Source of the DNA: Escherichia phage brachmannus
Sequence record: ON711395.1
DNA: 51,540 bases
Reading direction: 5' to 3' (one strand)
Part shown: one piece after another, positions 6,736-49,728 of the stretch
Layout: every line of letters begins with the position of its first letter
Numbering within the stretch: the first letter of the stretch is position 1
Position numbers and translations under genes: made by a program
The notes under the pieces: model-generated
The model's database searches: none
The model's input: the letters and a program-made list of their open reading frames with translations, nothing else
What the model was told of the DNA's origin: nothing

Positions 6736-6763
6736 TTGCACGTTTAACAAAAAGTGCTATCAT
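6736..6763 (+). promoter_or_regulatory. promoter-like TTGCAC-16-TGcTATCAT upstream of major capsid gene (overlaps inverted motif copy)
   Basis: -35-like hexamer, 16-bp spacer, extended -10-like TGnTATCAT. Confidence 0.4.
6742..6759 (-). promoter_or_regulatory. conserved motif copy in inverted orientation upstream of major capsid gene
   Basis: plus strand reads GTTTAACAAAAAGTGCTA. Confidence 0.5.
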
Positions 6764-10453: not shown

Positions 10454-10493
10454 ATTCCTGTAAAATCAATCTATCAAATAAATTAATTCCACT

Positions 10494-10510
10494 TTTAACA
10501 AAAAGTGCTA
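10494..10510 (-). promoter_or_regulatory. conserved motif copy in inverted orientation abutting RBS of tail chaperone gene
   Basis: plus strand reads TTTTAACAAAAAGTGCTATAAGGAG. Confidence 0.5.
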
Positions 10511-10525
10511 TAAGGAGATCTTGAG

Positions 10526-20586: not shown

Positions 20587-21201
20587 TTAATCATAGTGCG
20601 ATGAATTTATAACCAAAACAGATGATGCCGTGTAAATACCAACAGGACCAGGAGTTTGCGCAACCTGCCTAGATAAAGAATATACCCCGTTGCCATACGC
20701 GGCAGCTTGAGACTCAAATATCATGAATCCACCTAAAGACGGATTGGGCACAGAGTTTAAAGCTGTTAGTGATGGCATGATGGCGCAAGGGTATCCCAAG
20801 TTAACGTCAAAAGCGATCCCGCTTACAGATACAAGTTTTGCATCCAAAGGCTTCATCTTTCCATGATAAACCATCTCACCATTAGCATTATAAAAAGCTA
20901 TTCCGTGACTACCAGGAGGAGTAACCATGTTGCTAAAAGCATAAACAAATACCTCGCCTTGATTGTCGGACTTTTCTATCTTTATTGCGTGCTTCCCACC
21001 ATTATTAAACTGAGTAAATGCTATGTATGATTTTGATGTTAACCTTACAAAAAAGAAGCACGGTCTATTTATTGGTATAGAAGTATTAAAAACGGTTCCT
21101 GTTCTTGCTGATATTTTCCCTTTATCTATAAGGTTAACAGGAGTGAAATCTGGACTTAACCACAATGAACCGTCCGGTTTTTTTATGCTCATCCCGTACA
21201 T
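20587..21201 (-). CDS. hypothetical protein (possible tail fibre-associated)
   Basis: ORF on minus strand; ATG at 21199-21201 with GGGGG RBS-like run (track start 21213 is TTG). Confidence 0.4.
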   Translation of the reverse strand: MYGMSIKKPDGSLWLSPDFTPVNLIDKGKISARTGTVFNTSIPINRPCFFFVRLTSKSYIAFTQFNNGGKHAIKIEKSDNQGEVFVYAFSNMVTPPGSHGIAFYNANGEMVYHGKMKPLDAKLVSVSGIAFDVNLGYPCAIMPSLTALNSVPNPSLGGFMIFESQAAAYGNGVYSLSRQVAQTPGPVGIYTASSVLVINSSHYD

Positions 21202-21203
21202 TA

Positions 21204-21482
21204 TTACCCCCAAAAAGTATATATATATCTTGAGTCAGATCCAGAAAGGCCACTCCATGTAACGGTATCACCACTTACACCCAACTTTGGAGCGCCTGGA
21301 TCGCCTCCTCGCCACGAATTAATTCCAACATATATTGCTTTCAAAGACTTACCTGGCGGCCTGTTTGAGTAGGTCTTACTGCCGGATGATTGGGTAAATT
21401 TATCCAAGAAAAAAACTGGAGTTAAAAGACCAGTAACATTTCTACCTTGCTCATCATATATTGCATACCCATATTCAGCCAT
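21204..21482 (-). CDS. hypothetical protein
   Basis: 92-aa ORF with GAGGTG RBS; ends in T5G5 homopolymer region abutting downstream ORF. Confidence 0.4.
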   Translation of the reverse strand: MAEYGYAIYDEQGRNVTGLLTPVFFLDKFTQSSGSKTYSNRPPGKSLKAIYVGINSWRGGDPGAPKLGVSGDTVTWSGLSGSDSRYIYTFWG

Positions 21483-21750
21483 TTTTGCACCTCAAATCAA
21501 TGAATTTTCTTTCATCTTGCCAACGGTTGATAAATTTAACTTCTTTATTGTCAACGCTCAACCTGTATTGCTTTTGGCTGAATCTGTTTTCGCGGACAGC
21601 ATTAATTTTAACTTCATGGAATCCGTTAACAGGGAATGTTTTAACGTTAAATTTTGCCGTGCAATCGATCTCCTTGAAGTTGCCAGTAGGCGAAGAAGAA
21701 CATCCGGTCAGAGCGGCTACGGTGGCGATAACTGCGATTAATTTTTTCAT
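21475..21750 (-). CDS. lipoprotein, candidate Cor/Llp-like superinfection exclusion protein
   Basis: signal peptide with lipobox LTGC; AAGGAG RBS; small size; located next to tail fibre genes with own promoter region. Confidence 0.45.
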   Translation of the reverse strand: MKKLIAVIATVAALTGCSSSPTGNFKEIDCTAKFNVKTFPVNGFHEVKINAVRENRFSQKQYRLSVDNKEVKFINRWQDERKFIDLRCKNG

Positions 21751-21806
21751 CTTCAATACTCCTTAGTTGTTGTTGGCTGTAACTATACACGATCCGACAA
21801 GCTGAG

Positions 21807-21823
21807 TTTAGCAAAAAGTGCTA
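21807..21823 (-). promoter_or_regulatory. conserved motif variant + TATAGT upstream of lipoprotein gene (minus strand)
   Basis: minus strand reads TAGCACTTTTTGCTAAAC, TATAGT 21 bp after TTGCTA. Confidence 0.55.
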
Positions 21824-22193
21824 CTTGTTATTTTTTGTTTTCCAGTGTTATCGAATTTAAGACGGCGCAAATTTGGCGCAAATTTTAACCAACACAAGAG
21901 CAATAAACAACCAATAAAATAGATATATGCATATAAAATCAATAGTTTATTTATTTATGTATGTATATTTGTTTTTTCTTGTTATCTGTGTTTCTTGTGG
22001 TTTTGGTTGTTTGTGGTGATTTTTCTTTCTGAGTATCTGCATGTGCCATCATTCATGTGTATGTATATAATCCGGCGTATCTGAGAGAACAAGGGAACAA
22101 GAAAAATAACACATGTTAATCATTAACTTACGTGTCAGATTTGTTTTCTTGCCATCTGAGAACGTTTAGAAAACAGAAAAAACAAAACAACTA

Positions 22194-22221
22194 TTGACTA
22201 AATCAACCAAATGGCTACAAT
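22194..22221 (+). promoter_or_regulatory. sigma70-like promoter TTGACT-16-TACAAT upstream of recombination module
   Basis: near-consensus hexamers about 30 nt upstream of GAGGAG RBS of 22252 gene. Confidence 0.6.
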
Positions 22222-22251
22222 GCACACACAAAGCAACGAGGAGCATTAAAG

Positions 22252-25250: not shown

Positions 25251-25529
25251 TTAAGCCCATTCTCTAATAGGCCGATCTAACTCAACCACGTATCCATTAA
25301 AAATTACGGCATCAAACTTATCATCAATGATTCGCACATTAACGAAATAGCCGTCGTTCTTTCGCGCAATCTCCTCGCCATCGTCATATCGTGCAATTAC
25401 TGTATAAGTATTGCCGATTACATCGAGCAGGGTTGCATCCTGAATGGATTCGTTTTCGTTCCATTCAATTTCTTCCAGAAAGGCGGAAAACTCCGCCTTG
25501 TCTACAAATTTCAGTGTTAAATCACGCAT
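25251..25529 (-). CDS. hypothetical protein (tail fibre-associated)
   Basis: ATG overlapping stop of tail fibre gene. Confidence 0.4.
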   Translation of the reverse strand: MRDLTLKFVDKAEFSAFLEEIEWNENESIQDATLLDVIGNTYTVIARYDDGEEIARKNDGYFVNVRIIDDKFDAVIFNGYVVELDRPIREWA

Positions 25530-27508
25530 TATACAATTTCCCCCAATTGATGATCTGTTAGTGCCTTGTGCCATATACGGAAGTTTCTAACGTGACCGAA
25601 AAGATGGCGTTCGCCTGTACTTGTTTGTCCGCCAATCCTTATAGTAGCCGTTGATACTATATATCTCCATTCCGTTTTTGTTTCGCTTGATATTCTGGCA
25701 TTACTTACACAACAAGTATTGTAATCACTCTTTACTCTCATTCCTATGATCATCTTTTTTAGTTTTGCATTCTCGTAAACCCTTCTTTTTGATCCACCTA
25801 TATCGCAATAAGGGAATCCATCATTATCGCCATCGGCAGGCCCGAAAGCAAGAATAATTGCCGCACCAGATTGATGACCTCCAGTATCGAAAACACGAGG
25901 CGCAGCATTTGGCGTTATATACCAGTTCTTATGTACCTCACAAAGAACAGTAAAAGGAAGATTATAAAGGTTATTCTTGATTGGGATTGTCACCATATCG
26001 CTTGCCCGTGTTACTGGAGTCTCTTCTGTAATAATAAACGATGAAGCGCACACACCTCCTTCAACTTGAGGGGTAGCAATATAAATATAATCACCTGCAC
26101 CAGTTCCCCCTCCATCTTTTGCTGGTGCATACTGCACCATTGCACCGATCATATTTTCTGTATCAAGCGCTTTAATTGTTGCCTCAAAGAAAATCCATTT
26201 GCTTGCTTCATCTTTAACAGCCCTTGCAGTAATACGATTTGCAGCGCCGCCAGTTTTTTCAATTGATAAATCTGTCAGATTTACGTAAGCATCACCCAAA
26301 AATGCATAAGAAGATCCATCGTAGTTTTCAAATCGTAATCGGCATCTTAAATTTGGAGTCCCACTTTGCGCCCTGCATGATATGGTTACATACTTTTCAT
26401 TTCCTGTTACATCAAAACCTCTACTGCCGGAAACGGTTACTATGTTAATCGCTGAAGTTTGTCCTACCATTTCTGGTTTTAATGTAAATTTTGCGTACTG
26501 GAATCCGAAATCATCTACACCTGATCTATCTAAGATCATATTTGATGACTTGTTCCATTTTGAAGGATTGGTACTATTTATAAGAAGGTTTGTTCTTTGC
26601 CCCTCAATGAGCAGACCATCCTTTTCAAATCTAGGTTCATCAATAGCAGCATTAGTAAGCACCCCAGACTTATTAATGTAAGTAGCGGTTGATGCTCGTT
26701 TAAACTTAACTATCTTGTCACCTGGCATCGTGATCTCATCGTCACCTATAACAATCTTTTTGTATGACGGCGAGAATCCGGTAATCATATCCAGGGAGTC
26801 ATTAAATGGTATCCACACGTCCGGCAACGGTTGCAATAAGTCCTTGTAAGGTTCTGCCGCCTGCTTTGCGTATTCCTCCGCTTGATCTCGCGCACTTTCA
26901 GCTCCTGCCTTTGCAGTGTTCGCAGCGTCACGCGCGGATTCAGCGCCAGACTTTGCTGCTTCAGCGCCAGTCTTTGCAGTGTTTGCAGCGTCGCGCGCGG
27001 ATTCAGCGGCAGCCTTTGCAGTATCAGCACCTTTCTTGCTATTCGCTGCATTTGTTGCGCTTGTCTTCGCGTTATTCTCGCTGGTTTTAGCTGCCTGCTG
27101 GCTTGCTGCTGCTGCGTCAGCATTTGTCTTTACGTCTTCCTGGATCTTCTGTAGCTTATCCCAATCAAAATCCTTGATGATCTCAATAAATCCAGCAAAC
27201 TCCGATTCCTTCCCCTGGTAATAACGCAGCGTTTCCGCTACGTCTTGCGCAAGACCGTCAACCGTTAACGAGTCATGAAGCAAGATCAGGTAATTTGTCT
27301 TCTGGACTACCGCGCCGCCAGTAGTAATTGCGCGAATGCTTGTATCGCTAATCACTTCTGTAATCACAGCAGCTTGCAAAGGTTGAGCAAGAAAGAAAAT
27401 AGTTGCGCCTGGGCGAATCAATGTTAATTGCTCACGCCATTTTGTACCGTAACCAGTTACATAACCTTGCTCGTCCATAGACGCTTGGCCTTGTCTGTAA
27501 ATCGCCAT
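25529..27508 (-). CDS. tail fibre protein
   Basis: about 660 aa; Ala/Ser/Thr-rich tandem repeats typical of fibre shafts; C-terminal lectin-like region (NFRIWHKALTDHQLGEI); ATG 27506-27508 with AGGAGG RBS. Confidence 0.7.
   Translation of the reverse strand: MAIYRQGQASMDEQGYVTGYGTKWREQLTLIRPGATIFFLAQPLQAAVITEVISDTSIRAITTGGAVVQKTNYLILLHDSLTVDGLAQDVAETLRYYQGKESEFAGFIEIIKDFDWDKLQKIQEDVKTNADAAAASQQAAKTSENNAKTSATNAANSKKGADTAKAAAESARDAANTAKTGAEAAKSGAESARDAANTAKAGAESARDQAEEYAKQAAEPYKDLLQPLPDVWIPFNDSLDMITGFSPSYKKIVIGDDEITMPGDKIVKFKRASTATYINKSGVLTNAAIDEPRFEKDGLLIEGQRTNLLINSTNPSKWNKSSNMILDRSGVDDFGFQYAKFTLKPEMVGQTSAINIVTVSGSRGFDVTGNEKYVTISCRAQSGTPNLRCRLRFENYDGSSYAFLGDAYVNLTDLSIEKTGGAANRITARAVKDEASKWIFFEATIKALDTENMIGAMVQYAPAKDGGGTGAGDYIYIATPQVEGGVCASSFIITEETPVTRASDMVTIPIKNNLYNLPFTVLCEVHKNWYITPNAAPRVFDTGGHQSGAAIILAFGPADGDNDGFPYCDIGGSKRRVYENAKLKKMIIGMRVKSDYNTCCVSNARISSETKTEWRYIVSTATIRIGGQTSTGERHLFGHVRNFRIWHKALTDHQLGEIV
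26880..27120 (-). repeat. intragenic tandem repeats in tail fibre gene (Ala-rich shaft repeats)
   Basis: repeated DNA blocks CTTTGCAGTGTT(C/T)GCAGCGTC(A/G)CGCGCGGATTCAGCG; protein AESARDAANTAK repeats. Confidence 0.6.
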
Positions 27509-27526
27509 TTGTAAAATCCTCCTAAA

Positions 27527-27546
27527 TAGCACTTTTTGCTAATGAC
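27527..27546 (+). promoter_or_regulatory. conserved motif copy TAGCACTTTTTGCTAATGAC (antisense to adjacent tail fibre gene start)
   Basis: abuts RBS of tail fibre gene on opposite strand. Confidence 0.5.
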
Positions 27547-27614: not shown

Positions 27615-28544
27615 TTATAGCAGTGATTCGGGCTTGTAGAGTTTTCTTTCTACTCCCTGTTTAAAATTATCGTTAACAGGCATCATTATGTCAAGCCCTC
27701 TTTCCTCTGCCGCGATTATCACATCACGATCATCTTTCCGGCAGACTACGCGCATTCTTCTTTCTCCTTTATATCTATGCGCAACCATTTCAAGATTTGA
27801 AGGAGTAAAACAGGCCCACACCTCTTGACCAGTTGATAAATGAACATGCTGAGAATCAACCCAATCAAGGCACAAATAGATCGTCTTATCTGTACTACCT
27901 GTTTTAACAACAGATCCTCGCGTGTAGTCGCGAGCTAAAAACCAATCCTTTCCATCCTCATCAATGAAAAGCACGTTACACATTTCATCATCCAGCCCGT
28001 CATCATGCACCAGGTGACAAGGTAGCGCGTGAATGTATCGACCATCCTTGACGCCGCAATCATAATGACAATCTTCCGGCGGATATATCCCCTCATAAAC
28101 GCTTAAAGGTGTGCGATCGAATTTTAATGTTTTTGCCATCACTTTTTCGCAACATTCATGACTTGCCTGTTTCCCGAACGAGTAACCAGAAGAACGCGAA
28201 GCGCATTTGTTTGCTCTGATCCTGTAATCTTGTGGCACTTTTCCGAGGAAGCGGCCCAAAATGTTGATGGCCTCGCTGTAAGGTTCGCCAGTTAATTTCA
28301 TTAACCAACCGATCCCCGTGTCGTTGCCGCACACGTTGCAGATCGCGCCGCCGTCGCCCTCTTCATTTAGCTTATCAGTCCATCTAAAACGATCCTTACC
28401 GCCGCAGTGTGGGCAAGGTTGATGCTTTTTGTTGAAAACATCGCTATGCAGTCCGCAAATGCTTTGTAGTGCTTCACGCCATAACCCCTTCATATATGGC
28501 AAAACATCTTCTTTCTGATAGGTCATAAAGTTTTCAGTATTCAT
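27615..28544 (-). CDS. DNA primase (zinc-binding)
   Basis: CPHCGG...CNVCG zinc ribbon; acidic toprim-like region; ATG at 28542-28544 with GAGGT RBS. Confidence 0.6.
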   Translation of the reverse strand: MNTENFMTYQKEDVLPYMKGLWREALQSICGLHSDVFNKKHQPCPHCGGKDRFRWTDKLNEEGDGGAICNVCGNDTGIGWLMKLTGEPYSEAINILGRFLGKVPQDYRIRANKCASRSSGYSFGKQASHECCEKVMAKTLKFDRTPLSVYEGIYPPEDCHYDCGVKDGRYIHALPCHLVHDDGLDDEMCNVLFIDEDGKDWFLARDYTRGSVVKTGSTDKTIYLCLDWVDSQHVHLSTGQEVWACFTPSNLEMVAHRYKGERRMRVVCRKDDRDVIIAAEERGLDIMMPVNDNFKQGVERKLYKPESLL

Positions 28545-28599
28545 GGCAAACCTCAATAAAAAAGCCCAGCAAATATTATCATTTCGCTGGGCCTTATCA

Positions 28600-29076
28600 T
28601 TAGCTATTCGTGCTGTTATCACCTTTGTAGAATCGTCCGCCTGGTTCGTAGTCTGAATTTTTGACTACGCGCAACATATCGTATTTGTCGCAACGGGTAG
28701 TAAGAGGCTTACCGTTAGAATCAAACCGCAGATCTGGACGACAAAATGATGCGCGGTATCCTTTGCATCCATTATATTTGTAGTCGTTATGCACCTTTTG
28801 TGCTCCAGCGGCTGAAATCATACCACGCTTTCGCCACTGGTTAACGACTTGCTGAGATACGCGCAGACGTCGAGCCATAGCAGGAACGCCGCCGTAATAC
28901 TCGATCAGAATGTCAAGGCGAGATTTCAGGCTTGCTTTTACCTCATCTCGCAGGATAAGAAATCCGGTTCGGTGTTTTCGTGGTTTTTTGTCTTTACCTC
29001 GTCGCGTTCCGTTGTTACCGTTAATAGTGCGCTTGTCGATCTCACCAGTAGATACTGCAATTCGTGCATCTTTCAT
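28600..29076 (-). CDS. HTH DNA-binding protein (putative transcriptional regulator)
   Basis: helix-turn-helix-like segment GVPAMARRLRVSQQVVNQWRKRG; basic N-terminus. Confidence 0.45.
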   Translation of the reverse strand: MKDARIAVSTGEIDKRTINGNNGTRRGKDKKPRKHRTGFLILRDEVKASLKSRLDILIEYYGGVPAMARRLRVSQQVVNQWRKRGMISAAGAQKVHNDYKYNGCKGYRASFCRPDLRFDSNGKPLTTRCDKYDMLRVVKNSDYEPGGRFYKGDNSTNS

Positions 29077-29088
29077 CTAGTCACCTCA

Positions 29089-29107
29089 TAGCATTTTTTG
29101 TTAAAAC
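29089..29107 (+). promoter_or_regulatory. conserved motif copy TAGCATTTTTTGTTAAAAC upstream of helicase
   Basis: TATTAT 22 bp downstream of TTGTTA. Confidence 0.55.
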
Positions 29108-29163
29108 AGTTTATTGTAATGAGTCTATTATATACTCCAAATGGCATTTTTTAAAGGTTTAAG

Positions 29164-31161
29164 ATGATTCCAAATATCGAAAAACAAATATCAGCATTAG
29201 GCGAGGCAGTAATAAAAAGCATCCAAGAGCGATTCACGGTTGGCAATATAGTGCCTTATCCTTATCAGTGCGTTGCGTATGCAGAGATCGCAAAGCGCAT
29301 GAAAAACTATGATCATCCTTTCTTTGTTAAGGCTTCTGTATCGGCTGGCAAAACATTGATGTTTGCGATGGTTGCGGCGCAATGCCGCAAAATGGGATTG
29401 AAAATGATGGTCCTTGCTCGCCAGGCTGAAATTGTTGATCAGGATTCGGAAGAGATCAGCAATCTTGGCGTGCCAAACTCAATCTATTGCGCCGGACTGA
29501 AAACAAAAAGCGCATACTTTCCGATCGTAGTAGGTTCTGAGGGCACTGTAGTAAACGGATTGTTTAAGTCGTTAGGTGATTATGTTCCGCACGTTATCGG
29601 TATTGATGAATGTCACCAGGTGGATTGGGAGGATCTCGCGGACGCGATAGAAAATAATGAATCTTACCAGCAGATGACCACTAAGAAGGATTTGCCTGTA
29701 CTGATTGGAGAAGAACAGCAATTTGATTCCAATGGCGATCCAATGTTCGGAACAGGGCGCACACAGTACACCGTAATAATCATGGAAATGATGCGTAGGT
29801 GTCGCGAGGCATACGGGCACGAATTGCGAATATTCGGCATGACTGGATCTGAGTTTCGCGGCGTGGTTACAATACTGGTTGAAGATAAGAACAAAAAGGG
29901 ATTCTGGCGTGAGCAGGTGACTAACATAGACACAAACTACTTAATCAAATTCGGTTCGGTAGTGCCAACAAACTTCGGCGACGTAGGCGACCTGGGTTAT
30001 GACCTTTCAGAGTTCGAAGCCAGTAGCGAGGATGGCGTTTCAGACTTTGACGCTAAAACATTGCGCAAGATGGAAGAAAAGATCCATCAAGACGCAACAA
30101 TGACACAGAAAATCATGGCTAAAGTCCATGAGATATGCAAAGACAGGAACGGAGTTTTAGTTACATGCGCAGGGGAAAGGCACTGCAAGGAGGCCGCCGC
30201 CGCACTGCCGCCAGGCGTTGAATACAGGATCATAACTGGCAAGACTGGAGATAATCAGCGTAAAGAGTGGCTGAGGGAGGCATACGAGGGAAAAGTAAAA
30301 TACATCTTCCAGGTACAGGCGCTTACCACTGGCGTTAACGTTCCGTTTTGGGATACTTCGGTAATACTGAGAAAAATAGGATCTCTAACATTGCTTATCC
30401 AGCTTTTGGGGCGCGGCATGCGACTGCTTAAGCAATGGCACATTGAGCAGGGATTCAAGAAAAAAGATCATCTTGTATTGGATTTTGCAGGTACTATGGA
30501 TGAGTTAGGTGATTTGTATTTCGATCCAATCCTTGAGCAAGCGCAATTCCAAAAGAGATTTACAAACGGGAAAGAGCCTAAGACTTGTCCGATATGTGGA
30601 ACGCTAAACAGCTTTTACGCTCGCCGATGTATGCACGTAGACGATAACGGGAAGCGATGTGAGCATTTTTGGACTTACAGAATTTGCGAGGATCAGGTAG
30701 ATCAGAGAACGAAAAAGATAATCAAGCGCGGTTGCGGAACAAAAAACGACGTAGTGGCGAGAGTATGCCGTTGTTGCGATATTTCTCTTGTCGATCCTAA
30801 CGAGAAGTTAAGCGGTAAGCACTACACCAAAAACGATTGGTGCAACGTTAAATCTTTCCGCGTTGATATGACGAAAAACCAGAAAGGAATTATTTTTTGC
30901 TATGAGCTTGAGGCCAACGGCGATACGTTCAAGGCATACGAAAGATTTTTCCCTGAGTCAGAAAGCAACATTTGCCGGACGATATGGAGAAAAATAGCAT
31001 TGCAGCACATACCGGATCGCAAGATTGCTGGTATGGTGGCGAGCTATAGAAATGCTCGTAAAATAATGTCATACGCTCATCACATCATGCCGCCTGTACG
31101 CGTAACGCATCGCAAAAACGGCAAAGGTGAGGATAACATTGCAAAACGGGAGTTTGTTTAA
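29164..31161 (+). CDS. SF2 DNA helicase (DExH-box) with C-terminal Cys-rich domain
   Basis: Walker A SVSAGKT, DECH box, multiple CxxC pairs in C-terminal third. Confidence 0.75.
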   Translation: MIPNIEKQISALGEAVIKSIQERFTVGNIVPYPYQCVAYAEIAKRMKNYDHPFFVKASVSAGKTLMFAMVAAQCRKMGLKMMVLARQAEIVDQDSEEISNLGVPNSIYCAGLKTKSAYFPIVVGSEGTVVNGLFKSLGDYVPHVIGIDECHQVDWEDLADAIENNESYQQMTTKKDLPVLIGEEQQFDSNGDPMFGTGRTQYTVIIMEMMRRCREAYGHELRIFGMTGSEFRGVVTILVEDKNKKGFWREQVTNIDTNYLIKFGSVVPTNFGDVGDLGYDLSEFEASSEDGVSDFDAKTLRKMEEKIHQDATMTQKIMAKVHEICKDRNGVLVTCAGERHCKEAAAALPPGVEYRIITGKTGDNQRKEWLREAYEGKVKYIFQVQALTTGVNVPFWDTSVILRKIGSLTLLIQLLGRGMRLLKQWHIEQGFKKKDHLVLDFAGTMDELGDLYFDPILEQAQFQKRFTNGKEPKTCPICGTLNSFYARRCMHVDDNGKRCEHFWTYRICEDQVDQRTKKIIKRGCGTKNDVVARVCRCCDISLVDPNEKLSGKHYTKNDWCNVKSFRVDMTKNQKGIIFCYELEANGDTFKAYERFFPESESNICRTIWRKIALQHIPDRKIAGMVASYRNARKIMSYAHHIMPPVRVTHRKNGKGEDNIAKREFV

Positions 31162-31580
31162 TGGCTATAACTGATAAAGGAGATTATCTTGAGTTTTACG
31201 AAAGAGATCCAACCGACACGAGAAAGGAAGTTAATCACCAGATAGATAGCTTTCAGTGGTTGACTTATGCTCATCCTTATTTGCTAGCGTGGCATACGGT
31301 AAACGAGAATGAGAAGTCGAAAGTAACGGCGATGATTGATCAGCAGTCCGGCTTGGTTAAGGGGGTAAGCGATTTCATCATCCTGATTGGTTCAAACGGA
31401 AAATACCCCTTTGCAGCGATTGAGATCAAACGAGTGAATAAATCAGGCAAGGGGAAAGCATCACCAGTCAGCGATGAACAAAAGGCTTTTTTGCGTCGCG
31501 TTCGCAGCTTAGGAGGATTCGCTGCGGTCGCCTACGGATTTAATCAGTTTAAGTTAGCTATTGAATACATGCTTAAATAG
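31161..31580 (+). CDS. VRR-NUC-like PD-(D/E)XK nuclease
   Basis: motif GVSDFIIL...AIEIK; start overlaps helicase stop. Confidence 0.5.
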   Translation: MAITDKGDYLEFYERDPTDTRKEVNHQIDSFQWLTYAHPYLLAWHTVNENEKSKVTAMIDQQSGLVKGVSDFIILIGSNGKYPFAAIEIKRVNKSGKGKASPVSDEQKAFLRRVRSLGGFAAVAYGFNQFKLAIEYMLK

Positions 31581-31596
31581 CACTTTTTGTTAAAAC
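31578..31596 (+). promoter_or_regulatory. conserved motif TAGCACTTTTTGTTAAAAC + hairpin + ATAAT
   Basis: overlaps stop TAG of VRR-NUC gene; hairpin TGGCGC...GCGCCA. Confidence 0.6.
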
Positions 31597-32390: not shown

Positions 32391-32648
32391 ATGAAAAAAG
32401 AGAGAAGCGTTTATTTAAATGAAACTGGCGAGTGGTTGTTATTTCGCGCTATGGTGTGCGATGCACTTGATAAAAACCCTAACGTGAAAAAGATGATTGA
32501 TTGCGATCCGTGGGAATTTTCAAGCGCATTAGATATGAGCTTTGATGAGACAAGAAAACTCCCTCTTGAAAAATGGCACGAACAAATCAGAAATGATATG
32601 CAAGAGTTTGTAGATTCGTGGAATTTTCAGAACGGAATGATCCACTAA
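32391..32648 (+). CDS. hypothetical protein
   Basis: 85-aa ORF, ends at TAATAG preceding motif copy. Confidence 0.5.
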   Translation: MKKERSVYLNETGEWLLFRAMVCDALDKNPNVKKMIDCDPWEFSSALDMSFDETRKLPLEKWHEQIRNDMQEFVDSWNFQNGMIH

Positions 32649-32667
32649 TAGCACTTTTTGTTAAAAC
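32649..32667 (+). promoter_or_regulatory. conserved motif + hairpin + CATAAT
   Basis: after TAATAG; downstream leader TCATCGAAACGA...GAGGAAA shared with the 43503 copy. Confidence 0.6.
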
Positions 32668-32723
32668 GCCCGGCATTTTGTCGGGCATAATTATTTCATC
32701 GAAACGAACGTGAGGAAATGAAA

Positions 32724-32903
32724 ATGGTAGTATATAGCAAGAAAGCATTTGACCAGGCGCAACAAGCCGCACGCGAGGCGGTAAAAGGTGGAACGAAAAA
32801 CAATATGCAGCTTGATTGGGGCGCTGCAATGATTCTACTTCGCGTTGCATATGGTCACTACCCATTAGAATTTGCGGAGGCATATTATAAGCATGAAGGT
32901 TGA
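32724..32903 (+). CDS. hypothetical protein
   Basis: ATG after GAGGAAATGAAA leader conserved with other early genes. Confidence 0.45.
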   Translation: MVVYSKKAFDQAQQAAREAVKGGTKNNMQLDWGAAMILLRVAYGHYPLEFAEAYYKHEG

Positions 32904-35603: not shown

Positions 35604-35783
35604 TTCGATACGCTTTACAGTAACCAACAAAACGCCGTCTTCATCACACAAATTATGCTCTGATATATCAAACGCTCGCATGTCAGAATGAATGAGCGTT
35701 AACATTGCGTGCATGAAGTCGTCATGTGAGATTTGAGAAGTGGCGCAAAATTTAAGAATTTCATCTATCAGTTTACTTTCCAT
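35601..35783 (-). CDS. hypothetical protein
   Basis: about 60 aa from internal ATG (MESKLIDE...). Confidence 0.35.
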   Translation of the reverse strand: MESKLIDEILKFCATSQISHDDFMHAMLTLIHSDMRAFDISEHNLCDEDGVLLVTVKRIE

Positions 35784-36246
35784 GATTTTTGTGGTAGCCA
35801 AATTTAACCTCCGCCTGTTCCCTTGCCTTAATTGCATCATCAAGACTTAAAAAATATCCTAAATGCACGCTCTTACCGTTATCATATATAGTTGCGTGCC
35901 ATCTTTTGTTTTTCTTATTCCAGCAAACACCAACTCGACCAGAGTTATTTCTTTTTAGTAGAGATACGTTTTTGCTGTTATCTAATCTTGATGCAAGCCT
36001 TAGATTTTCAATTCTGTTATCGCTCCTATTGTGCCATATATGGTCTATTTCCATTCCTTCTGGTATTTTTCCATTGTGCATTTCCCATATTATCCTATGC
36101 GCCAAAAACAATACACCATTATACCTTATTCTCACATATCCATTTTCACATACACATCCCGCAACGCTTCCAGGCTTTGCTTTCCCTCTTCTGTTTCTCC
36201 ATCTCAATATTCCATTGTCATATATAAATACTTCATTCCAATCCAT
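35773..36246 (-). CDS. HNH homing endonuclease with AP2-like domain (paralog of 16428-16904)
   Basis: EIDHIWHN...NLRL HNH motif; AT-rich, AGA/AGG codons; similar to first HNH gene. Confidence 0.8.
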   Translation of the reverse strand: MDWNEVFIYDNGILRWRNRRGKAKPGSVAGCVCENGYVRIRYNGVLFLAHRIIWEMHNGKIPEGMEIDHIWHNRSDNRIENLRLASRLDNSKNVSLLKRNNSGRVGVCWNKKNKRWHATIYDNGKSVHLGYFLSLDDAIKAREQAEVKFGYHKNHGK

Positions 36247-36628
36247 ATCTTTTCCTTAGAGCTTTTATTTGTTGTCTATTAGCTTTTGCCTGGAACAATT
36301 CATCATCGCCCATCTCCCCTATTCTCGCCATATCCCTGATCCAGTCGTTGCGCATACCATCCAGGCTATACAATTCGAATCCGAAAGGCCGCTTTGACGA
36401 TCCTTTGGACCAGTATTTACCGCAGACCCCATCTATATAGCCAGCCGTCATCATTCTTGCGCAAAATTCCTTAGATGTAAGGCTGGCGAACATTCGCGGC
36501 GTAAGTCCGGCGGCCCGTGCGAGCCGCTCGCATTCTCTATGCTGATAGATAAATTTGGCTATGTGCTGCCTGTTAAACCAGTCGTATGACTCACACCATT
36601 TATACAGATCAAGCAAAAACATAATCAT
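36233..36628 (-). CDS. hypothetical protein
   Basis: 131-aa ORF, overlapping neighbours. Confidence 0.45.
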   Translation of the reverse strand: MIMFLLDLYKWCESYDWFNRQHIAKFIYQHRECERLARAAGLTPRMFASLTSKEFCARMMTAGYIDGVCGKYWSKGSSKRPFGFELYSLDGMRNDWIRDMARIGEMGDDELFQAKANRQQIKALRKRYGLE

Positions 36629-38205
36629 CCCAGCAGTATTGGATTGACAAAAATAACACCATTAATCACGCAAACATAATTTCTTTCTTCCAGCATTGGC
36701 AGCAAGTGCCCCTCTATCCTCTTCATTACGCCAGCCTGACCAACGAAAGGTTTTACCTTTCTCGCTGATTCGTACAGGGCGCGAATATTCAGAATCCCTT
36801 TATTAGCCTTGCCGTGTCTAGTGATCAATTCAATCAATTTGCCCATTTCAGCATCATCACCAGCATAACCAGAAGCATTGGCGGCGCTAATGTATGTTTT
36901 GCTCAATTCCTGAAACATGATCAACGCCTCTTGCATTGTTTCCACGTCGATCTCTTTCGACTTCTGCGGGTATCCAGCAGGATTAAACCAGTTGCGGATA
37001 ACATGCAGGACGGAAGCAAGCCTGATCACCTGTTTATCCATTTTACCCAGCGCGCCGCGTAACATTGTATGAGAATACTTTCCGCCGTCTGCAAGATGCG
37101 GTTCCATATCCTGGCGAGCAATGTTGAGCACTCGCATAGCTGAACGGCTTATTTTCAGCGATATATTTGATTCGCTCATGATGTTATGCACCAATTGATA
37201 ATATTGGGCCTTCAATTCAGGATCCACCGCCTCATAGGTAGAATCACCATTTTCATCAATGAATGAGCGACGGCCTAAGAATGATCCCTCTCGGACCAAC
37301 AAAAAACGCTCACTAACACCGATGCCTCGCGATCCAGCGTCCATGATTCCGCTTATCGTTTCATCCTGGGCTATGACGCTCATACATCCAAGCGCGCGAA
37401 AACTCATATTATTGTCAGCATTAGCACGGGCAATTGATACGTGACCATTATCCCACGCCTTAAGCACTAACTCACTGTTAGTCTTCCTTTCGCTATTTGC
37501 ATAGGTCAAGCCTAACAGACTGTTAATACTTGTTGCTTCATCAGATATTACGGCAAAGTTACCTTGCTTGTTGTTGATTTTCGCCAAGCCTTCTGGAGTT
37601 GTATCTGAAACAGGAAAAGTTATATCACACATTTTTTCCAGCTTTTCCTCCAGATCCTCTTTTTCCTGGTATAGAGATTCCATATCAGCGCCGGATCTTT
37701 CGCTTTTCATCTCCTTTGCAAGACCTGCCAACTTTGCCTGTATTTTCTTTCTTTCCTTGCGGCGTTGCTCGTTGATCTTCTCAACTTCCGCAATCATCGG
37801 AGCAATAGCCATACTGTTGATTGCAGATTTACCAGTTGACGGCGGTTGGCTTGTAACGACGTAAAGCGCAGTCGGCTGATCGGTTCCGTGATAGTCAACC
37901 GTAAAGCGTCCAAGCATAGCGGCAGAAATGCAGCCGATAAAGTGCATGTAAGCCGATGATTCAGGGAATTGAACGGATCGCGCAATGCTGCGTGATAGCT
38001 TGCCGACAACATCAATATCATTACCAAGAGAAATAACGGGGTAGCGATCGTGGCCGCTATTTACATCCTTCACGTCGCCCCAAAAGCTGGACGACTGGCG
38101 ATAGCCGTTAGCCTGAATTGATACGCGAACTGGTGAAAGGTTCTGGCTTTCAGCCATAGCGATTATTTGCTGTGGAGTTAATTTGTTCGTTTCTAATGAA
38201 AACAT
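36625..38205 (-). CDS. P-loop ATPase, possible replication-associated helicase-like protein
   Basis: 526 aa; Walker A-like QPPSTGKSA and Walker B-like AVISDEATS. Confidence 0.4.
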   Translation of the reverse strand: MFSLETNKLTPQQIIAMAESQNLSPVRVSIQANGYRQSSSFWGDVKDVNSGHDRYPVISLGNDIDVVGKLSRSIARSVQFPESSAYMHFIGCISAAMLGRFTVDYHGTDQPTALYVVTSQPPSTGKSAINSMAIAPMIAEVEKINEQRRKERKKIQAKLAGLAKEMKSERSGADMESLYQEKEDLEEKLEKMCDITFPVSDTTPEGLAKINNKQGNFAVISDEATSINSLLGLTYANSERKTNSELVLKAWDNGHVSIARANADNNMSFRALGCMSVIAQDETISGIMDAGSRGIGVSERFLLVREGSFLGRRSFIDENGDSTYEAVDPELKAQYYQLVHNIMSESNISLKISRSAMRVLNIARQDMEPHLADGGKYSHTMLRGALGKMDKQVIRLASVLHVIRNWFNPAGYPQKSKEIDVETMQEALIMFQELSKTYISAANASGYAGDDAEMGKLIELITRHGKANKGILNIRALYESARKVKPFVGQAGVMKRIEGHLLPMLEERNYVCVINGVIFVNPILLG

Positions 38206-40597: not shown

Positions 40598-40794
40598 TAG
40601 ATGATCTCCATGTATGTTTCAAAGCCATTTAACTTGAACAGGTCGTTTTCACATTTGCGAACGTTCCAAGTTAGCCCTGAGTGGTACGCCTCCATATCAT
40701 CAAGGTCAATGGTGATTTCAGCACCTTTCTTAAACAAACCTTTTTCGTGAGACTTGTCGCGCTTAACAACTTTAACATCAACCTGATTTTCCAT
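40597..40794 (-). CDS. hypothetical protein
   Basis: 65 aa. Confidence 0.45.
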   Translation of the reverse strand: MENQVDVKVVKRDKSHEKGLFKKGAEITIDLDDMEAYHSGLTWNVRKCENDLFKLNGFETYMEII

Positions 40795-40848
40795 CTTTAA
40801 ATCCTCGTTTGTTGTCGATGCGCTTACTATACCAATCAGCAGCGCATC

Positions 40849-41569: not shown

Positions 41570-41823
41570 TTTTTCTTCTCCTGCAATAAGCAAACATCAT
41601 TGATAAAATCAGCACGGCCCTTAATGTTGCTGATGTGGAACGTCTTTTCAGCGTACAGGCCATCACCTTCAATCACGATCATTACGCGAGTCGGTTTATT
41701 CACTGGCGCACACGAAAAGAGTGGTCGCGCCGGAAGAAATTTAGTGGTCACATCCAGGTTAGCCCTGGCGGCCCTGCAAAACGCCTCCGCCAGATCCAAA
41801 TCATTTTCGGTAATCACCGCCAT
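41557..41823 (-). CDS. hypothetical protein
   Basis: 88 aa. Confidence 0.45.
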   Translation of the reverse strand: MAVITENDLDLAEAFCRAARANLDVTTKFLPARPLFSCAPVNKPTRVMIVIEGDGLYAEKTFHISNIKGRADFINDVCLLQEKKKCWM

Positions 41824-42095
41824 TACTTTTTGATCTCCTTACTGATAAATTTCAGCACCTGGCGCAAGAAAACTTCGTTGTTGATAGTCGCTGGCAATTC
41901 TTCTTTCACTTCTTGCGGCAGATAGATATTGCCGTGCCAGGTCAAGCAATCGTAGTTGATACGATAAGAGCAAAGCCACTCGCAATCGTTATCTGCTTCC
42001 CAAATGCAGAGTTGCAGAACATCGCCAAAATCTTCAACAGTCAGATCCAGACCGTGACGCTTAGCGAAATTGAAAGTGGTTTTGCTGATGTTCAT
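41823..42095 (-). CDS. hypothetical protein (first gene of minus-strand early block)
   Basis: 90 aa downstream of motif-hairpin cassette. Confidence 0.45.
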   Translation of the reverse strand: MNISKTTFNFAKRHGLDLTVEDFGDVLQLCIWEADNDCEWLCSYRINYDCLTWHGNIYLPQEVKEELPATINNEVFLRQVLKFISKEIKK

Positions 42096-42154
42096 TTACT
42101 ATCTCCTGAGCGGTTCGTTTCGATGTGTGTAATGTACCCGATCAGGCGGCCTGA

Positions 42155-42173
42155 TTTTTAACAAAAAGTGCTA
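42155..42173 (-). promoter_or_regulatory. conserved motif + hairpin, minus strand, upstream of first minus-strand early gene
   Basis: minus strand TAGCACTTTTTGTTAAAAATCAGGCCGCCTGAT. Confidence 0.55.
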
Positions 42174-42713
42174 TTTGACGGTTAGCACCAGGATTGTGAT
42201 CGAAATAATCAAAAGTAATCATTCGTAATCAAATCACGTCAAAATGATGATTGCCTTTGCAAATTTGATGAGAAAAGTAATCACGTTTAATCATTGGTTG
42301 CAGGGGAGATAGTGAAACCTTCCCCTCTTGCCTCACTTTTCCGCCCGGCTGTCAGTGGTTGTTATGTTCCGTTCCCGCCTGTTCTTTTGTTGACCTTCCG
42401 CAAAATACGATAACAAAAAATAACAAACAGTACCTATATAATACATTGAAAAATAAGTATTATTTATTTATATGTATCTATATATTCTCTTTTGTTATCT
42501 TGGTTATTGTGGTATTTGGTGGGGTATATAGTTTTTGTGTATCTGTATGTGTGTATGGGTATGTAGGGGGCATATATATCTATATGGCACTTTCCGCGAG
42601 AAAACTTCGATAACAGGCAATGATAACATTGATTTATAAGGAAAAATAACGCCCATATTGTTATTGTGCCACCATATAAAATTGATAAAACACGCGGGAA
42701 CAAGAAAAAACAG

Positions 42714-42742
42714 TTGACACATTAAATAGCATTATTGATAAT
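42714..42742 (+). promoter_or_regulatory. sigma70-like promoter TTGACA-17-GATAAT upstream of plus-strand early array
   Basis: consensus -35 and good -10 about 30 nt upstream of AGGAGG RBS of 42772 gene. Confidence 0.6.
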
Positions 42743-42771
42743 GCCGACACCTAACAACCAGGAGGTAGAAA

Positions 42772-43236
42772 ATGAGCGAGCAATCATTCACTGACACGCT
42801 GCGCCGTGCAGCTATTATGCTGGCTAATGGCGAGGAAGAGACGATCAAGATTCCTGACGCGTATTTGCAGGTCCACATGTTCGGTAAGAAGTCGGCAAGC
42901 AATCCGGCGGCCTACATTCGCCAGATCATGAGTCGAGTGCCAGAAGTCGCCGAGCGGGGGCGCGTATCCGTTACCCGTGGCGTTTACGGGCCGGAAGATG
43001 AAAACTTCGGTAGCACTTTCTACGAGGTGCGGATTGTTGAAGGCCGTCGCAAGGTTTACAACAAAGAGGCACTGGAAAAGGCAGTGCGCCAGGCTAAGCG
43101 CAAGGTTGCAGAGGCGATCATTGATATGTCACCAAACCTGGCAAACTATGCGCCGGAAGAGTACGAAACATTATCAAAGGCCGTCGCTGACTTTCACGCG
43201 ATGATCAAAAAAACTTTCCTGGAGGATGAGCAATGA
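42772..43236 (+). CDS. hypothetical protein (first plus-strand early gene)
   Basis: 154 aa, AGGAGG RBS, downstream of TTGACA-17-GATAAT promoter. Confidence 0.55.
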   Translation: MSEQSFTDTLRRAAIMLANGEEETIKIPDAYLQVHMFGKKSASNPAAYIRQIMSRVPEVAERGRVSVTRGVYGPEDENFGSTFYEVRIVEGRRKVYNKEALEKAVRQAKRKVAEAIIDMSPNLANYAPEEYETLSKAVADFHAMIKKTFLEDEQ

Positions 43237-43505
43237 AAAAGGCATTAATCAGCGTTTTGGCGGCAATGGCATTCCTGACCGGATGCAAAGAAGATGGCGC
43301 GCATGTTGGCAATGTGCAGATGGCTAACCCTGGCGATGACTACAGCGTAAGGGAGCTATTCACCGCTGACGGTTGCACCGTTTACCGATTCTATGACGAT
43401 CGCACTGTTTACTTCACCAACTGTAAGGGCACGACTATCTGGGAAGTGTCGAAAAGCAATGGCAAAGGCACGAAGACAGAACATATGACCGTCGAGACAA
43501 AATAG
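43233..43505 (+). CDS. small lipoprotein
   Basis: signal peptide with lipobox LTGC. Confidence 0.5.
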   Translation: MKKALISVLAAMAFLTGCKEDGAHVGNVQMANPGDDYSVRELFTADGCTVYRFYDDRTVYFTNCKGTTIWEVSKSNGKGTKTEHMTVETK

Positions 43506-43521
43506 CACTTTTTGTTAAAAC
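43503..43521 (+). promoter_or_regulatory. conserved motif + hairpin GCCAGGC-GCAAA-GCCTGGC + ATAAT
   Basis: overlaps stop TAG of lipoprotein gene. Confidence 0.6.
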
Positions 43522-43577
43522 GCCAGGCGCAAAGCCTGGCATAATAGCCTCATCGAAACGAGATTGAGGAAACAAAA

Positions 43578-43763
43578 ATGGCACGTCGCATCACCAAAGA
43601 CCTTAAAGTCCTGAACAAAGAAAACGTAGTTAAAATCCTGGTTATCTGGGGCTACAACGAAGAAACAGCAAAGCAGAAGGTAGAGGCAGGTTATGACCTG
43701 GCTGTAAAAGCAATGCCAAACGATGACGCCAAAGGCATTGCAAACTATGTAGCGTTCTTTTAA
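43578..43763 (+). CDS. hypothetical protein
   Basis: 61 aa with RBS, after motif-hairpin cassette. Confidence 0.45.
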   Translation: MARRITKDLKVLNKENVVKILVIWGYNEETAKQKVEAGYDLAVKAMPNDDAKGIANYVAFF

Positions 43764-46663: not shown

Positions 46664-46718
46664 AGATCATCGGGCTTGCTGTATGGTAAGCACATCAACA
46701 ACAAACGAGGATTAAATC

Positions 46719-46982
46719 ATGGCTAACAAGATCGAATTTTTTAAAGCGGTAGACATTATTGATGGTGCGCCTAGCTTCTTTGCGATCCATTCTATTGACG
46801 GCAAGGATATTGGGTACAACGTTATCAGTCGAGATGGAATATCAAAACTTAGTGACCTGGTAGGCCATATTGTGTCAATCGGGAAATGCGCATGGCCCGA
46901 TTCGCCACGAGAGCCGCTCCGCAGCGACATGATTAATCCTGAATTGCTTTACACGCTGGTAGTAGAGGGAGAAAATAAATGA
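46719..46982 (+). CDS. hypothetical protein
   Basis: 87 aa. Confidence 0.45.
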   Translation: MANKIEFFKAVDIIDGAPSFFAIHSIDGKDIGYNVISRDGISKLSDLVGHIVSIGKCAWPDSPREPLRSDMINPELLYTLVVEGENK

Positions 46983-49149: not shown

Positions 49150-49440
49150 ATGGCAAACAAAACTTACCGCAAACTACTGGTTAACGCTTTTGAAAACATC
49201 GCGCAGTGTAACAAGTGGAACGACTCTAAACACTCGCCAATCACAATGAAGCGCGCCGGATTCAAAAATACTCGTTCATGGGCGCGAGCTTTCGCAGCTT
49301 GCTATATGCCGGATGGCGGACTAGGGGTGATGAACGATTTTTTGATCAACATGATAGAGGAAGCTGCGCGAGAGGATCGACCGCTGACACAGCGAGATTT
49401 TGACGACTTCGCGCGCGATGAGCTTTACTATCTGAGCTAA
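49150..49440 (+). CDS. hypothetical protein
   Basis: 96 aa; stop followed by TAG of motif copy. Confidence 0.45.
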   Translation: MANKTYRKLLVNAFENIAQCNKWNDSKHSPITMKRAGFKNTRSWARAFAACYMPDGGLGVMNDFLINMIEEAAREDRPLTQRDFDDFARDELYYLS

Positions 49441-49459
49441 TAGCACTTTTTGTTAAAAC
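49441..49459 (+). promoter_or_regulatory. conserved motif + hairpin AAGGGCA...TGCCCTT
   Basis: after TAATAG. Confidence 0.55.
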
Positions 49460-49515
49460 TTCCGCAAGGGCATTTGGTAAAGTGCCCTTATTGAAGCGAA
49501 ACAGAGGAAAGCGCA

Positions 49516-49728
49516 ATGAAAATTAAAATCACCAAAATCGACACCATCAACGGAGACGGATCAATCACTCTTGAGCAATGCGGTTTGGTTGTTGGTGATG
49601 TGCTGGAAGTTGACGGTCATTTCAGCTACGGATCTTATTGTGTTATTGCGCCGCGTAACAGCGAGTTTATCAAGGCTGGCGACAATATTAGTGTTAACCA
49701 TGACGAATGCGAGGTAGTAGAAGAATGA
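49516..49728 (+). CDS. hypothetical protein
   Basis: 70 aa. Confidence 0.45.
   Translation: MKIKITKIDTINGDGSITLEQCGLVVGDVLEVDGHFSYGSYCVIAPRNSEFIKAGDNISVNHDECEVVEE

Follow-up and report, generated by a model that had tools for sequence, protein, structure and literature searches.

Two intergenic regions in the genome of Escherichia phage brachmannus, here called region 1 (R1) and region 2 (R2), each contain a copy of an old non-coding DNA module that recurs throughout the phage family. The window, meaning the whole stretch of 51,540 base pairs (bp) that was analysed, is a complete T1-like genome (Drexlerviridae, Warwickvirus). A sequence-only reading of R2 had listed several sequence blocks shared with R1 and suggested either a duplicated regulatory module or paired sites for one regulator. 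The two regions are located as follows.

21757–22251: R1, a divergent intergenic region between the gene of a cor-like lipoprotein (−) and exonuclease VIII/recE (+)
42096–42771: R2, a divergent intergenic region between the phrog_6147 gene (−) and the DUF7174 gene (+)

Homology between R1 and R2

A core of about 150 bp was common to R1 and R2, on the same strand.

21876–22026 (+): R1 core, with an A/C-rich arm, an AT centre (21914–21974) and a G/T-rich arm
42393–42542 (+): R2 core, with an A/C arm (about 42396–42433) that includes GATAACAAAAAATAACAAAC, an AT centre of 85–90% A+T (42434–42494) and a G/T arm (about 42495–42560)

Smith-Waterman alignment paired 21902–22045 with 42419–42551 at a score of 69. 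Dinucleotide shuffles scored 22.5 ± 2.5, and composition-keeping shuffles of 40-nucleotide (nt) blocks scored 35.6 ± 6.5, with a maximum of 60. As the observed score was far above both shuffle sets, the likeness is not merely one of AT-richness. An nhmmer profile made only from homologous sequences of other phages, with the window left out, detected just two sites in the window, 21876–22026 (E = 1.3e-27) and 42393–42542 (E = 9.4e-24). Both were on the plus strand, and no other match had E < 1. A chance low-complexity match is ruled out as an explanation of the core by the shuffles and the profile, and the pairwise alignment thus revealed conserved homology beyond a low-complexity AT resemblance.

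All the shared blocks of the sequence-only reading, together with its tract and its TGTGG/TTGG segment, were present at or near the places it had given. The block GGGAACAAGAAAAA had two exact copies in the 51.5-kb window. The tract TTATTTATTTAT(R)T(R)TAT was found solely at 21947–21968 and 42460–42481 (0.28 expected by chance), and the TGTGG/TTGG-rich tracts were found at about 21994–22020 and 42500–42522. The copies of GGGAACAAGAAAAA were placed as follows.

22093–22106 (+): R1 copy, inside the direct AACA repeats GAGAACAAGGGAACAAGAAAAATAACAC
42696–42709 (+): R2 copy, A-rich, directly upstream of the −35 element of the rightward promoter

These 14-mers occupy non-equivalent positions in the module, 5 nt upstream of the −35 element in R2 and 88 nt in R1, and are instances of a recurring A-tract/AACA motif. 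Six of its eight genomic matches were in R1 and R2, an enrichment that is partly circular because the pattern was derived from these regions. The block CAAAAAGTGCTA, found in both regions (21806–21824 and 42156–42174), was a member of a genome-wide 21-nt repeat and not specific to R1 and R2. The rightward promoters of the two regions, with the A-rich stretches upstream of them, were homologous as well. The idea of a duplicated regulatory module therefore stands as a statement of homology: the ~150-bp core and the promoter-proximal sequence are duplicated in the same orientation, and the duplication is old and Drexlerviridae-wide. Transcriptional regulation is one candidate for its function.

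Conservation across Drexlerviridae

R2 was 96–99% identical to its counterparts in Warwickvirus and related Tempevirinae records. The within-genome alignment of R1 with R2 was significant in 10 of the 12 genomes tested, T1 included (block-shuffle z between 4 and 15). In the T1 genome the profile found two sites only, 29973–30118, upstream of recE, and 189–347, both on the same strand. The core was present upstream of recE in all 43 IMG/VR loci (40 detected by the profile and three by eye), ending ~220 nt ahead of the recE start codon in nearly all of them. Of 101 Braunvirinae records searched with a core query, most had matches at two places. The haarsle record has a 34-nt 'repeat_region' marked inside its R1 core. 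Neither module had a match in the plasmid collection.

In a neighbour-joining tree, R1 copies clustered with R1 copies and R2 copies with R2 copies. The exceptions were T1 and the c017938/PGN590 lineage, in which R2 looked R1-like. This clustering by region indicates that the duplication predates much of the diversification of the family and that both copies were kept. With the same exceptions, it rules out strong concerted evolution. The R1 and R2 copies are ~55–60% identical to each other and are maintained separately. In the IMG/VR contig 3300045988_032316 (L050/L007), R1 was 95% identical to that of the window, and the R2 core was of the W011D type. The contig is a natural swap of one module and shows recombinational exchange.

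Structure and duplex stability of the core

Core structure was described from an alignment of 32 copies. From left to right, a GC-containing boundary (CCGCAAAAT / GGCGYAAAT) is followed by the A/C-rich arm with its AACA repeats, such as the GATAACAAAAAATAACAAAC noted above. Next comes a ~55-bp centre, which begins with a TATA(A)T-containing segment and has a mean A+T content of 87%. After it, a T-rich stretch carries two GTT motifs, invariant and separated by 9 nt, and a variable G/T-rich tract completes the core. Keto skew was negative in the left arm and positive in the right arm in 32 of 32 copies. The profile also gave weak reverse-strand hits at both core places, reflecting partial dyad symmetry. 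Downstream of the core are a second alternating-TA block, direct (G/T)(A/T)(A/T)AACA(G/A) repeats and then the rightward promoter, and in several lineages an AAAATCA-N13-TGATTTT palindrome lies between the core and the recE promoter. Two blocks flanking the R2 core were conserved in the alignment of orthologous R2 sequences.

42303–42330: GC-containing block GGGGAGATAGTGAAACC..CCCCTC, with hairpin potential that is weak and not conserved
42570–42587: second alternating AT block GCATATATATCTATATGG, followed by CCGCG, conserved as TAT.TATATAT

By nearest-neighbour duplex stability, the two AT centres ranked first and second genome-wide as the least stable DNA at every window size between 40 and 150 bp. 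Instability reached z = 4.6 at 42434–42494 and z = 4.3 at 21914–21974, with a third site at ~3.1. The two cores of T1 (z 5.8 and 5.5, third site 3.8) and of haarsle (5.1 and 4.5, third site 3.5) ranked likewise.

In most of the 32 copies the AT centre had a TATAAT hexamer on its left edge; R2 was among these (42437–42442), whereas R1 of the window lacked it. No copy of the core had a −35 element, and no sigma-70-type promoter was detectable in it. A match to the IHF consensus, WATCAANNNNTTR, was found in the R1 centre (21937–21949) and not in R2; it was present in ~12 of the 32 copies, and its genome-wide count (6, with 4.1 expected) was at chance level. By-eye inspection gave no convincing DnaA or LexA box. 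The late-promoter-like sequence TATATAATACAT was not enriched elsewhere in the genome. A transposon or miniature inverted-repeat transposable element was rejected as the source of the core, since the GGCGYAAAT-like flanking blocks are not identical within one genome and so cannot be target-site duplications.

Lineage-specific short motifs

Unbiased k-mer ranking was applied to three complete genomes (the window, T1 and haarsle). In T1, the 7-bp palindrome TGTAACA/TGTTACA was found six times in 48.8 kb, four times in R1 and twice in R2 (p = 2.5e-10), although the two regions together amount to just 2.5% of the genome. At the R2 promoter, two copies of TGTAACA overlap the −10/+15 positions. GATAACA, in turn, occurs 15 times in T1 and never in R1 or R2. 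The top GC-containing motif of the window was (G)ATAACA(A), with 6 of 22 GATAACA and 11 of 57 ATAACA in the two regions (p = 6e-8), including a closely spaced pair in R2.

42609–42628 (+): two direct GATAACA motifs 13 nt apart, GATAACAGGCAATGATAACA

Haarsle shares the GATAACA/TGTTATC motif type of the window. It had 13 of 50 ATAACA in the two regions (p = 1.5e-10), and four tandem CTGTTAT units with a period of 9–10 nt just left of the R2 core. Direct GTGAACA repeats were found in TLS, and further lineages had GTGAACA, TGTAATC or GTAAC(C/T).

The motif thus varies by lineage yet is the same in both regions of one genome, as expected from a co-evolving phage-encoded DNA-binding protein. The concentration of such motifs in both regions lends indirect support to the earlier suggestion of paired sites for one regulator. 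Array and motif types were also compared with the terminase small subunit, the helix-turn-helix (HTH) protein, the primase and the helicase, but covariation was uninformative, as all these proteins followed the same phylogeny and only three genomes were compared.

Promoters and 21-nt repeats

Each module ends in a predicted rightward sigma-70 promoter.

22194–22221 (+): P_R(R1), TTGACT-16-TACAAT, heading recE-erf-ssb
42714–42742 (+): P_R(R2), TTGACA-17-GATAAT, with a ribosome-binding site (RBS), AGGAGG, at 42760–42765 and the ATG at 42772

The second of these had been proposed in the sequence-only reading and was recovered there, matching the consensus at 11 of 12 positions. Both predictions have near-consensus hexamers and a spacing within 16–18 nt, and both are conserved across the aligned lineages. 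They lie ~170 bp downstream of the cores and fire away from them, towards recE-erf-ssb (R1) and the DUF7174 operon (R2), and they correspond to P51 (R1) and P01 (R2) of TLS. Kropinski and colleagues accepted only three sigma-70 promoters in TLS, P01 and P51 among them.

The leftward genes are served by units of another kind. Drexlerviridae carry 21-nt direct repeats, aaATAGCACnnnTTGnTAAAA, described for TLS (PMC11447400). In the window the repeat, ATAGCACnnnTTGnTAAAA, had 19 copies (for example at 2118–2136, 31577–31595 and 43502–43520), with 0.26 expected by chance. One copy was found in each region, upstream of the leftward genes in both.

21806–21824 (−): 21-nt repeat copy in R1 with two mismatches, pointing to the cor-like gene
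42116–42174 (−): leftward promoter/leader unit in R2, with a 21-nt repeat without mismatches (42156–42174), a GC hairpin (42141–42156), a −10-like TACATT and the leader CATCGAAACGA (42116–42126)

The 21-nt repeat was also the head of a ~80-nt homologous unit comprising the repeat, a GC-rich hairpin, CATAAT, the leader CATCGAAACGA and an RBS. The spacing from TTGTTA to CATAAT in these units is about 22 nt, which is too long for normal sigma-70, and their −10 reads TGGCATAAT (extended −10-like). The repeat-headed units were the following.

32647–32727 (+): ~80-nt unit
43501–43581 (+): ~80-nt unit
49439–49519 (+): ~80-nt unit
42113–42175 (−): unit in R2

All the repeats of TLS are described as lying in the direction of transcription (PMC11447400). 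In the window, three were oriented against the local gene direction (6742–6760, −; 10493–10511, −; 27526–27544, +). A further 55-nt inverted pair, 40778–40832 and 46681–46735, was 78% complementary and comprises a leader, an RBS and a gene start on opposite strands; it is a further duplicated expression signal.

Third in duplex instability in the window was the stretch 29068–29218, from which the Cro-like gene and the SF2 helicase gene diverge. This gap contains a 21-nt repeat (29088–29106) and no GATAACA, and its TLS counterpart holds the third sigma-70 promoter of that phage (P57).

"Control region" is therefore a justified label for R1 and R2, as both have real-looking promoters. That the flanking gene blocks are early, as the sequence-only reading put it, is presumed from T1. 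What that label missed is the composite nature of R2, which also holds the 21-nt repeat unit, a phased TAATCA array and probably the neighbourhood of the packaging site (pac).

Genomic setting and replication genes

The gene order of the window runs from the terminase genes to the structural genes, a short leftward block, R1, and then recE/exonuclease VIII, erf and ssb.

20587–21756: short leftward block, encoding a membrane protein, an outer-membrane protein and the cor-like lipoprotein

R2 is 676 nt long and is flanked by open reading frames (ORFs) at 41823–42095 (−) and 42772–43236 (+). It divides a leftward block containing a DUF3987 helicase (36625–38205, −) from a rightward block of small ORFs, of which the DUF7174 gene is the first. 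As a query for related loci, the DUF7174 protein found two loci only. The recE-erf-ssb operon begins at R1, and the leftward block with the helicase begins at R2.

No DNA-polymerase gene is annotated in the T1 or haarsle records. Besides RecE and Erf, the window encodes a zinc-ribbon primase (27615–28622), an SF2 (RadD-like) helicase, a single-stranded DNA-binding protein, a VRR-NUC nuclease and a Cro/YdaS-like HTH protein (28600–29076). The annotation of the T1 record likens its primase to the alpha proteins of the P4 family. Modelled with AlphaFold2, the DUF3987 protein had a predicted local distance difference test score of 87, and all structural matches of the model in PDB were MCM helicase chains (43 at E ≤ 1e-3). 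At its C-terminus the model had a helix-strand-helix-helix-strand-strand unit typical of a winged helix. The protein is thus MCM-like by predicted fold, with a winged-helix-like C-terminal domain. A sequence search of PDB with the helicase, DUF7174 and HTH proteins gave nothing useful save a weak Cro-like match for the HTH protein; the helicase had no match there by sequence.

Two unrelated phages (L096 and L097) with a homologous helicase (36–39% identity) have their replication genes in one operon running from a divergent gap of ~600 bp, which in both is dense in short repeats. The L096 gap (9240–9640) contained the least stable DNA of its 21.5-kb locus (z 4.7 and 4.2), had a TATATA-rich centre flanked by G5-6/C5-6 repeats, and gave a marginal match to the Drexlerviridae core profile (E = 0.016). 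The L097 gap (9314–9732) contained 10 of the 21 CTTACA/TGTAAG hexamers of its locus within 420 bp, and a (CAA)12 run; this hexamer closely resembles TGTAAC and TGTAAT, the motifs found in T1-type lineages.

Two further observations concern other parts of the genome. An HNH endonuclease gene with a weak AP2-like DNA-binding domain (35773–36246, −) is probably a homing endonuclease gene inserted beside the replication genes. A 63-nt tandem duplication (86% identity, 26897–27022) lies inside a 667-codon ORF (25529–27532, −) whose product is a tail-fibre homologue.

Candidate functions of the modules

We tentatively prefer, as somewhat short of probable, the reading that the R1 and R2 modules are phage origins of replication, with unwinding and initiator sites placed between divergent promoters; they could act as operators too. 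The core lies ~170 bp from the promoters, has no −35 element and is the most meltable DNA in the genome, so that an origin or unwinding element fits at least as well as transcriptional control. One phage-encoded DNA-binding protein would recognise the short motifs in both regions, and the AT centres would act as DNA-unwinding elements. Negative supercoiling contributed by divergent transcription from the promoters on either side would aid the opening of the centre, where the MCM-like DUF3987 helicase and the zinc-ribbon primase may be loaded. The same sites may double as operators, tying early transcription to replication.

Origins of the type that combines iterons with an unwinding element have an AT-rich element of low stability, and the cores were the least stable DNA in the window, T1 and haarsle. 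They also have several regularly spaced initiator repeats; here short motifs were strongly enriched in both regions, with four tandem units in haarsle, but no iteron array was found in the window. As to a transcription-primed origin, the TATAAT in the core was present in most copies, R2 among them, but without a −35 element, and the R1 copy of the window did not have it.

Several points weigh against origins. Tandem Repeats Finder detected only short repeats of two to three copies in the window and no classical iteron array, and the enriched motifs are only 6–7 nt long. The whole module, promoter included, is homologous between R1 and R2, and the duplication of a promoter cassette explains this just as simply. 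R1 and R2 are certainly transcription control regions, since the R1 and R2 promoters are among the only three confident sigma-70 promoters of TLS, and the TGTAACA motifs over the R2 promoter of T1 look operator-like. Divergent promoters often have AT-rich DNA between them. The helicase gene is next to neither region and lies 4 kb from R2. The recombinant contig 3300045988_032316 argues against a strict need for matching R1 and R2 copies. Initiation and protein binding at the modules are, on present sequence data, candidate roles.

The close rival, which we consider possible but doubtful, is that the modules are purely transcriptional cassettes, which would have arisen when an early promoter and the operator or activating region upstream of it were copied together, so that two operons are driven in coordination. 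The core would then be a bent or supercoil-sensitive upstream activating sequence (ilvPG-like, with IHF) or a platform for a regulator such as the Cro/YdaS-like protein encoded at 28600–29076. The conserved near-consensus promoters that end both modules, their standing in TLS and the homology of the promoter-proximal parts are all consistent with this, as are the TGTAACA motifs overlapping the R2 promoter of T1, the palindromes upstream of the recE promoter in several lineages, the IHF match in the R1 centre and the presence of an HTH protein. However, the core lies 170–320 bp upstream of the −35 element, too far for an UP element, and the TATAAT of the core has no −35 element and is missing from R1 of the window. 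The divergent promoter region of the regulator itself, at about 29.1 kb, lacks GATAACA. The IHF consensus is not found in R2 and is no more frequent in the genome than expected by chance. The polarity from A/C to G/T and the extreme melting have no obvious operator role. Transcriptional cassettes thus account for the promoter homology and the operator-like TGTAACA of T1, and less well for the distance, polarity and instability of the core. The transcriptional and origin readings are not mutually exclusive.

A more specific form of the origin reading, which we think unlikely, is that the modules are twin origins at which the MCM-like helicase is loaded head to head. The polarity of the arms would dictate which strand each hexamer encircles, and the winged helix would read the TGT(A/T)A-type motifs.

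It is very unlikely that the modules are purely architectural, bound by host nucleoid proteins (IHF, Fis, H-NS) and by no phage-specific protein, so that incoming phage DNA is shaped or silenced. Their extreme A+T content, alternating TA/TG steps and A-tracts, and the WATCAANNNNTTR match in R1 and about a dozen of the aligned copies, would suit such proteins. The IHF motif is not conserved across copies, however, and the GC-containing motifs differ by lineage (GATAACA, TGTAACA, GTGAACA) though the hosts are the same or close, which points to a phage-encoded partner.

A packaging role for the core, with the AT-rich sequence (the 'ATATA repeats' of T1) as pac and R1 as a second or cryptic pac, is highly improbable. 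The evidence on packaging concerns the left part of R2, which contains the phased array.

42206–42293 (+): TAATCA array found in R2 only, with copies at 42206, 42216 and 42226 and then at 42278 and 42288, in exact 10-bp spacing (Tandem Repeats Finder period 10)

The three copies and the two that follow 52 nt further on are on one strand, and R1 has no such array. Other lineages have the hexamers ATTCCA/GGAATA, TTGCA or GATTTG at this position. The records of three phages begin between the array position and the core, 115–200 nt left of the R2 core: T1, which has an annotated terminal repeat of 2.8 kb, starts 190 nt left of it, TLS about 190 nt left of its own core and SU57 about 115 nt left of its own. 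The pac of TLS was placed by restriction mapping, and TLS showed a single submolar pac fragment. For SU57, both PhageTerm and a coverage step support the chosen end, and the untranslated region here is stated to contain pac (PMC7718038). According to a second-hand mention in PMC8421802, an earlier proposal took ATATA repeats to be the pac of T1.

These record starts and the T1 proposal would be consistent with a pac at the core. However, the ends are to the left of the core and fall within or close to the R2-specific hexamer arrays that R1 lacks. A pac site is expected once per genome, and there are two cores to the single submolar pac fragment of TLS; the core is equally conserved at R1, 20 kb away. 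From the positions of these ends, packaging initiation is best assigned to the R2-specific left part and not to the shared core. The TAATCA array is a candidate binding array for the terminase (pac) or for an initiator.

Finally, small hydrophobic ORFs or a non-coding RNA in the GT-rich tract can be dismissed as barely credible: although ORFs of 72–84 codons are readable across R2, hypothetical proteins are annotated there in several GenBank records, and single-sequence folds gave long hairpins (z −1.9 to −3.1), the ORFs are limited to the closest relatives, 168 of 173 core alignment gaps are not multiples of three, RNAalifold found no consensus structure (0 pairs) in the 32 core copies, and Rfam at gathering thresholds found nothing in the whole window. 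Protein coding by the core was rejected on the first two of these counts; recE was uninformative as a control for the gap-length test, because its nucleotide-level alignment gave many paired +1/−1 gaps. The hairpins are not conserved and arise because A/C-rich arms face G/T-rich arms.

Comparison with known systems

In phage P4, the origin and crr are two separated cis regions that share motifs for one initiator, a primase-helicase with a C-terminal winged helix. P4 has clear multi-copy 8-bp iterons, and its crr contains a 120-bp direct duplication. The modules described here resemble this arrangement in that two separated regions share short motifs, and the P4 iteron TGTTCACC is similar to the TGTTATC, TGTTCAC and TGTTACA of these phages. 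Unlike in P4, there are only a few short motifs, and 20 kb separates the two regions, both of which have an AT centre and a promoter. Primase and helicase activities are also divided between two proteins.

The T4 origins oriF (uvsY) and oriG (gene 34) and the primary origin of T7 consist of a promoter and an adjacent AT-rich unwinding element, and T4 has more than one origin per genome. R1 lies at recE-erf-ssb, as one T4 origin lies at a recombination gene, and the G-rich non-template strand right of the core would favour an R-loop. In T4 and T7, however, the unwinding element is downstream of the priming promoter, whereas the strong promoters of R1 and R2 face away from the core, and the TATAAT in the core lacks a −35 element and is not universal.

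The origins of herpes simplex virus (oriS and oriL), simian virus 40, papillomaviruses and Staphylococcus aureus pathogenicity islands have an AT-rich centre with opposite-facing initiator motifs between divergent genes, in more than one copy per genome, and self-loading hexameric helicases that assemble in head-to-head pairs. An AT centre with flanking short motifs between divergently transcribed genes, in two copies, is also what was found here. Beyond the AAA+/MCM-like helicase fold there is no sequence or protein homology to these systems, and binding at the modules is putative.

Upstream activating sequences of the ilvPG type combine supercoil-induced duplex destabilisation with IHF. In the modules, too, a sigma-70 promoter is preceded by AT-rich DNA that melts very easily and includes an IHF consensus, but the core is about 270 nt from the start site and not about 90 nt, and the IHF motif is found only in R1 of the window.

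The pac site of P1 has hexamer repeats that contain GATC, in the context of a Dam methylase. The phased TAATCA hexamers of the left part of R2, with their 10-bp spacing, are similarly near the genome end as placed in related phages, and the phage of the window encodes a Dam methylase. They differ in lacking GATC and in being absent from R1, and cleavage near them in this phage is putative.

The 21-nt repeats of Drexlerviridae, with one copy per region, both leftward, are the source of the shared CAAAAAGTGCTA, but they are genome-wide and lie outside the two-copy core.

Significance

Earlier work had already described the 21-nt repeats and shown that long untranslated regions exist at the 'ends' of T1, and no replication origin has been recognised in T1-like phages (PMC11447400, PMC7718038). 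We found no earlier description of the paired AT-rich cores, their melting rank or their shared motifs, which seem to be new, although an earlier mention is possible as the T1 and Rtp genome papers were outside the search. The literature search found no transcriptome paper for a T1-like phage. Phage origins and early control regions are familiar as kinds of element; what is new is the polar architecture in two copies and its link with an MCM-like helicase module.

The R1 and R2 modules are the best candidates so far for the unidentified replication origins or master early control sites of these phages. T1 is a classic coliphage whose basic regulatory questions are listed as open in recent papers. 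Two precisely delimited, family-wide candidate cis-elements, which are also the two easiest-melting sites of the genome, make the question of the T1-like origin directly testable. The modules would also matter for the engineering of Drexlerviridae, which are common as therapeutic and BASEL-type phages, for example in rebooting, minimal genomes and replication-dependent vectors. Because an MCM-like helicase module is associated with such gaps in unrelated phages as well, the element may be more general. If the twin-origin form were true, bacterial viruses would have their own equivalent of the origin licensing of archaea and eukaryotes, common to other phage families with a DUF3987 helicase.

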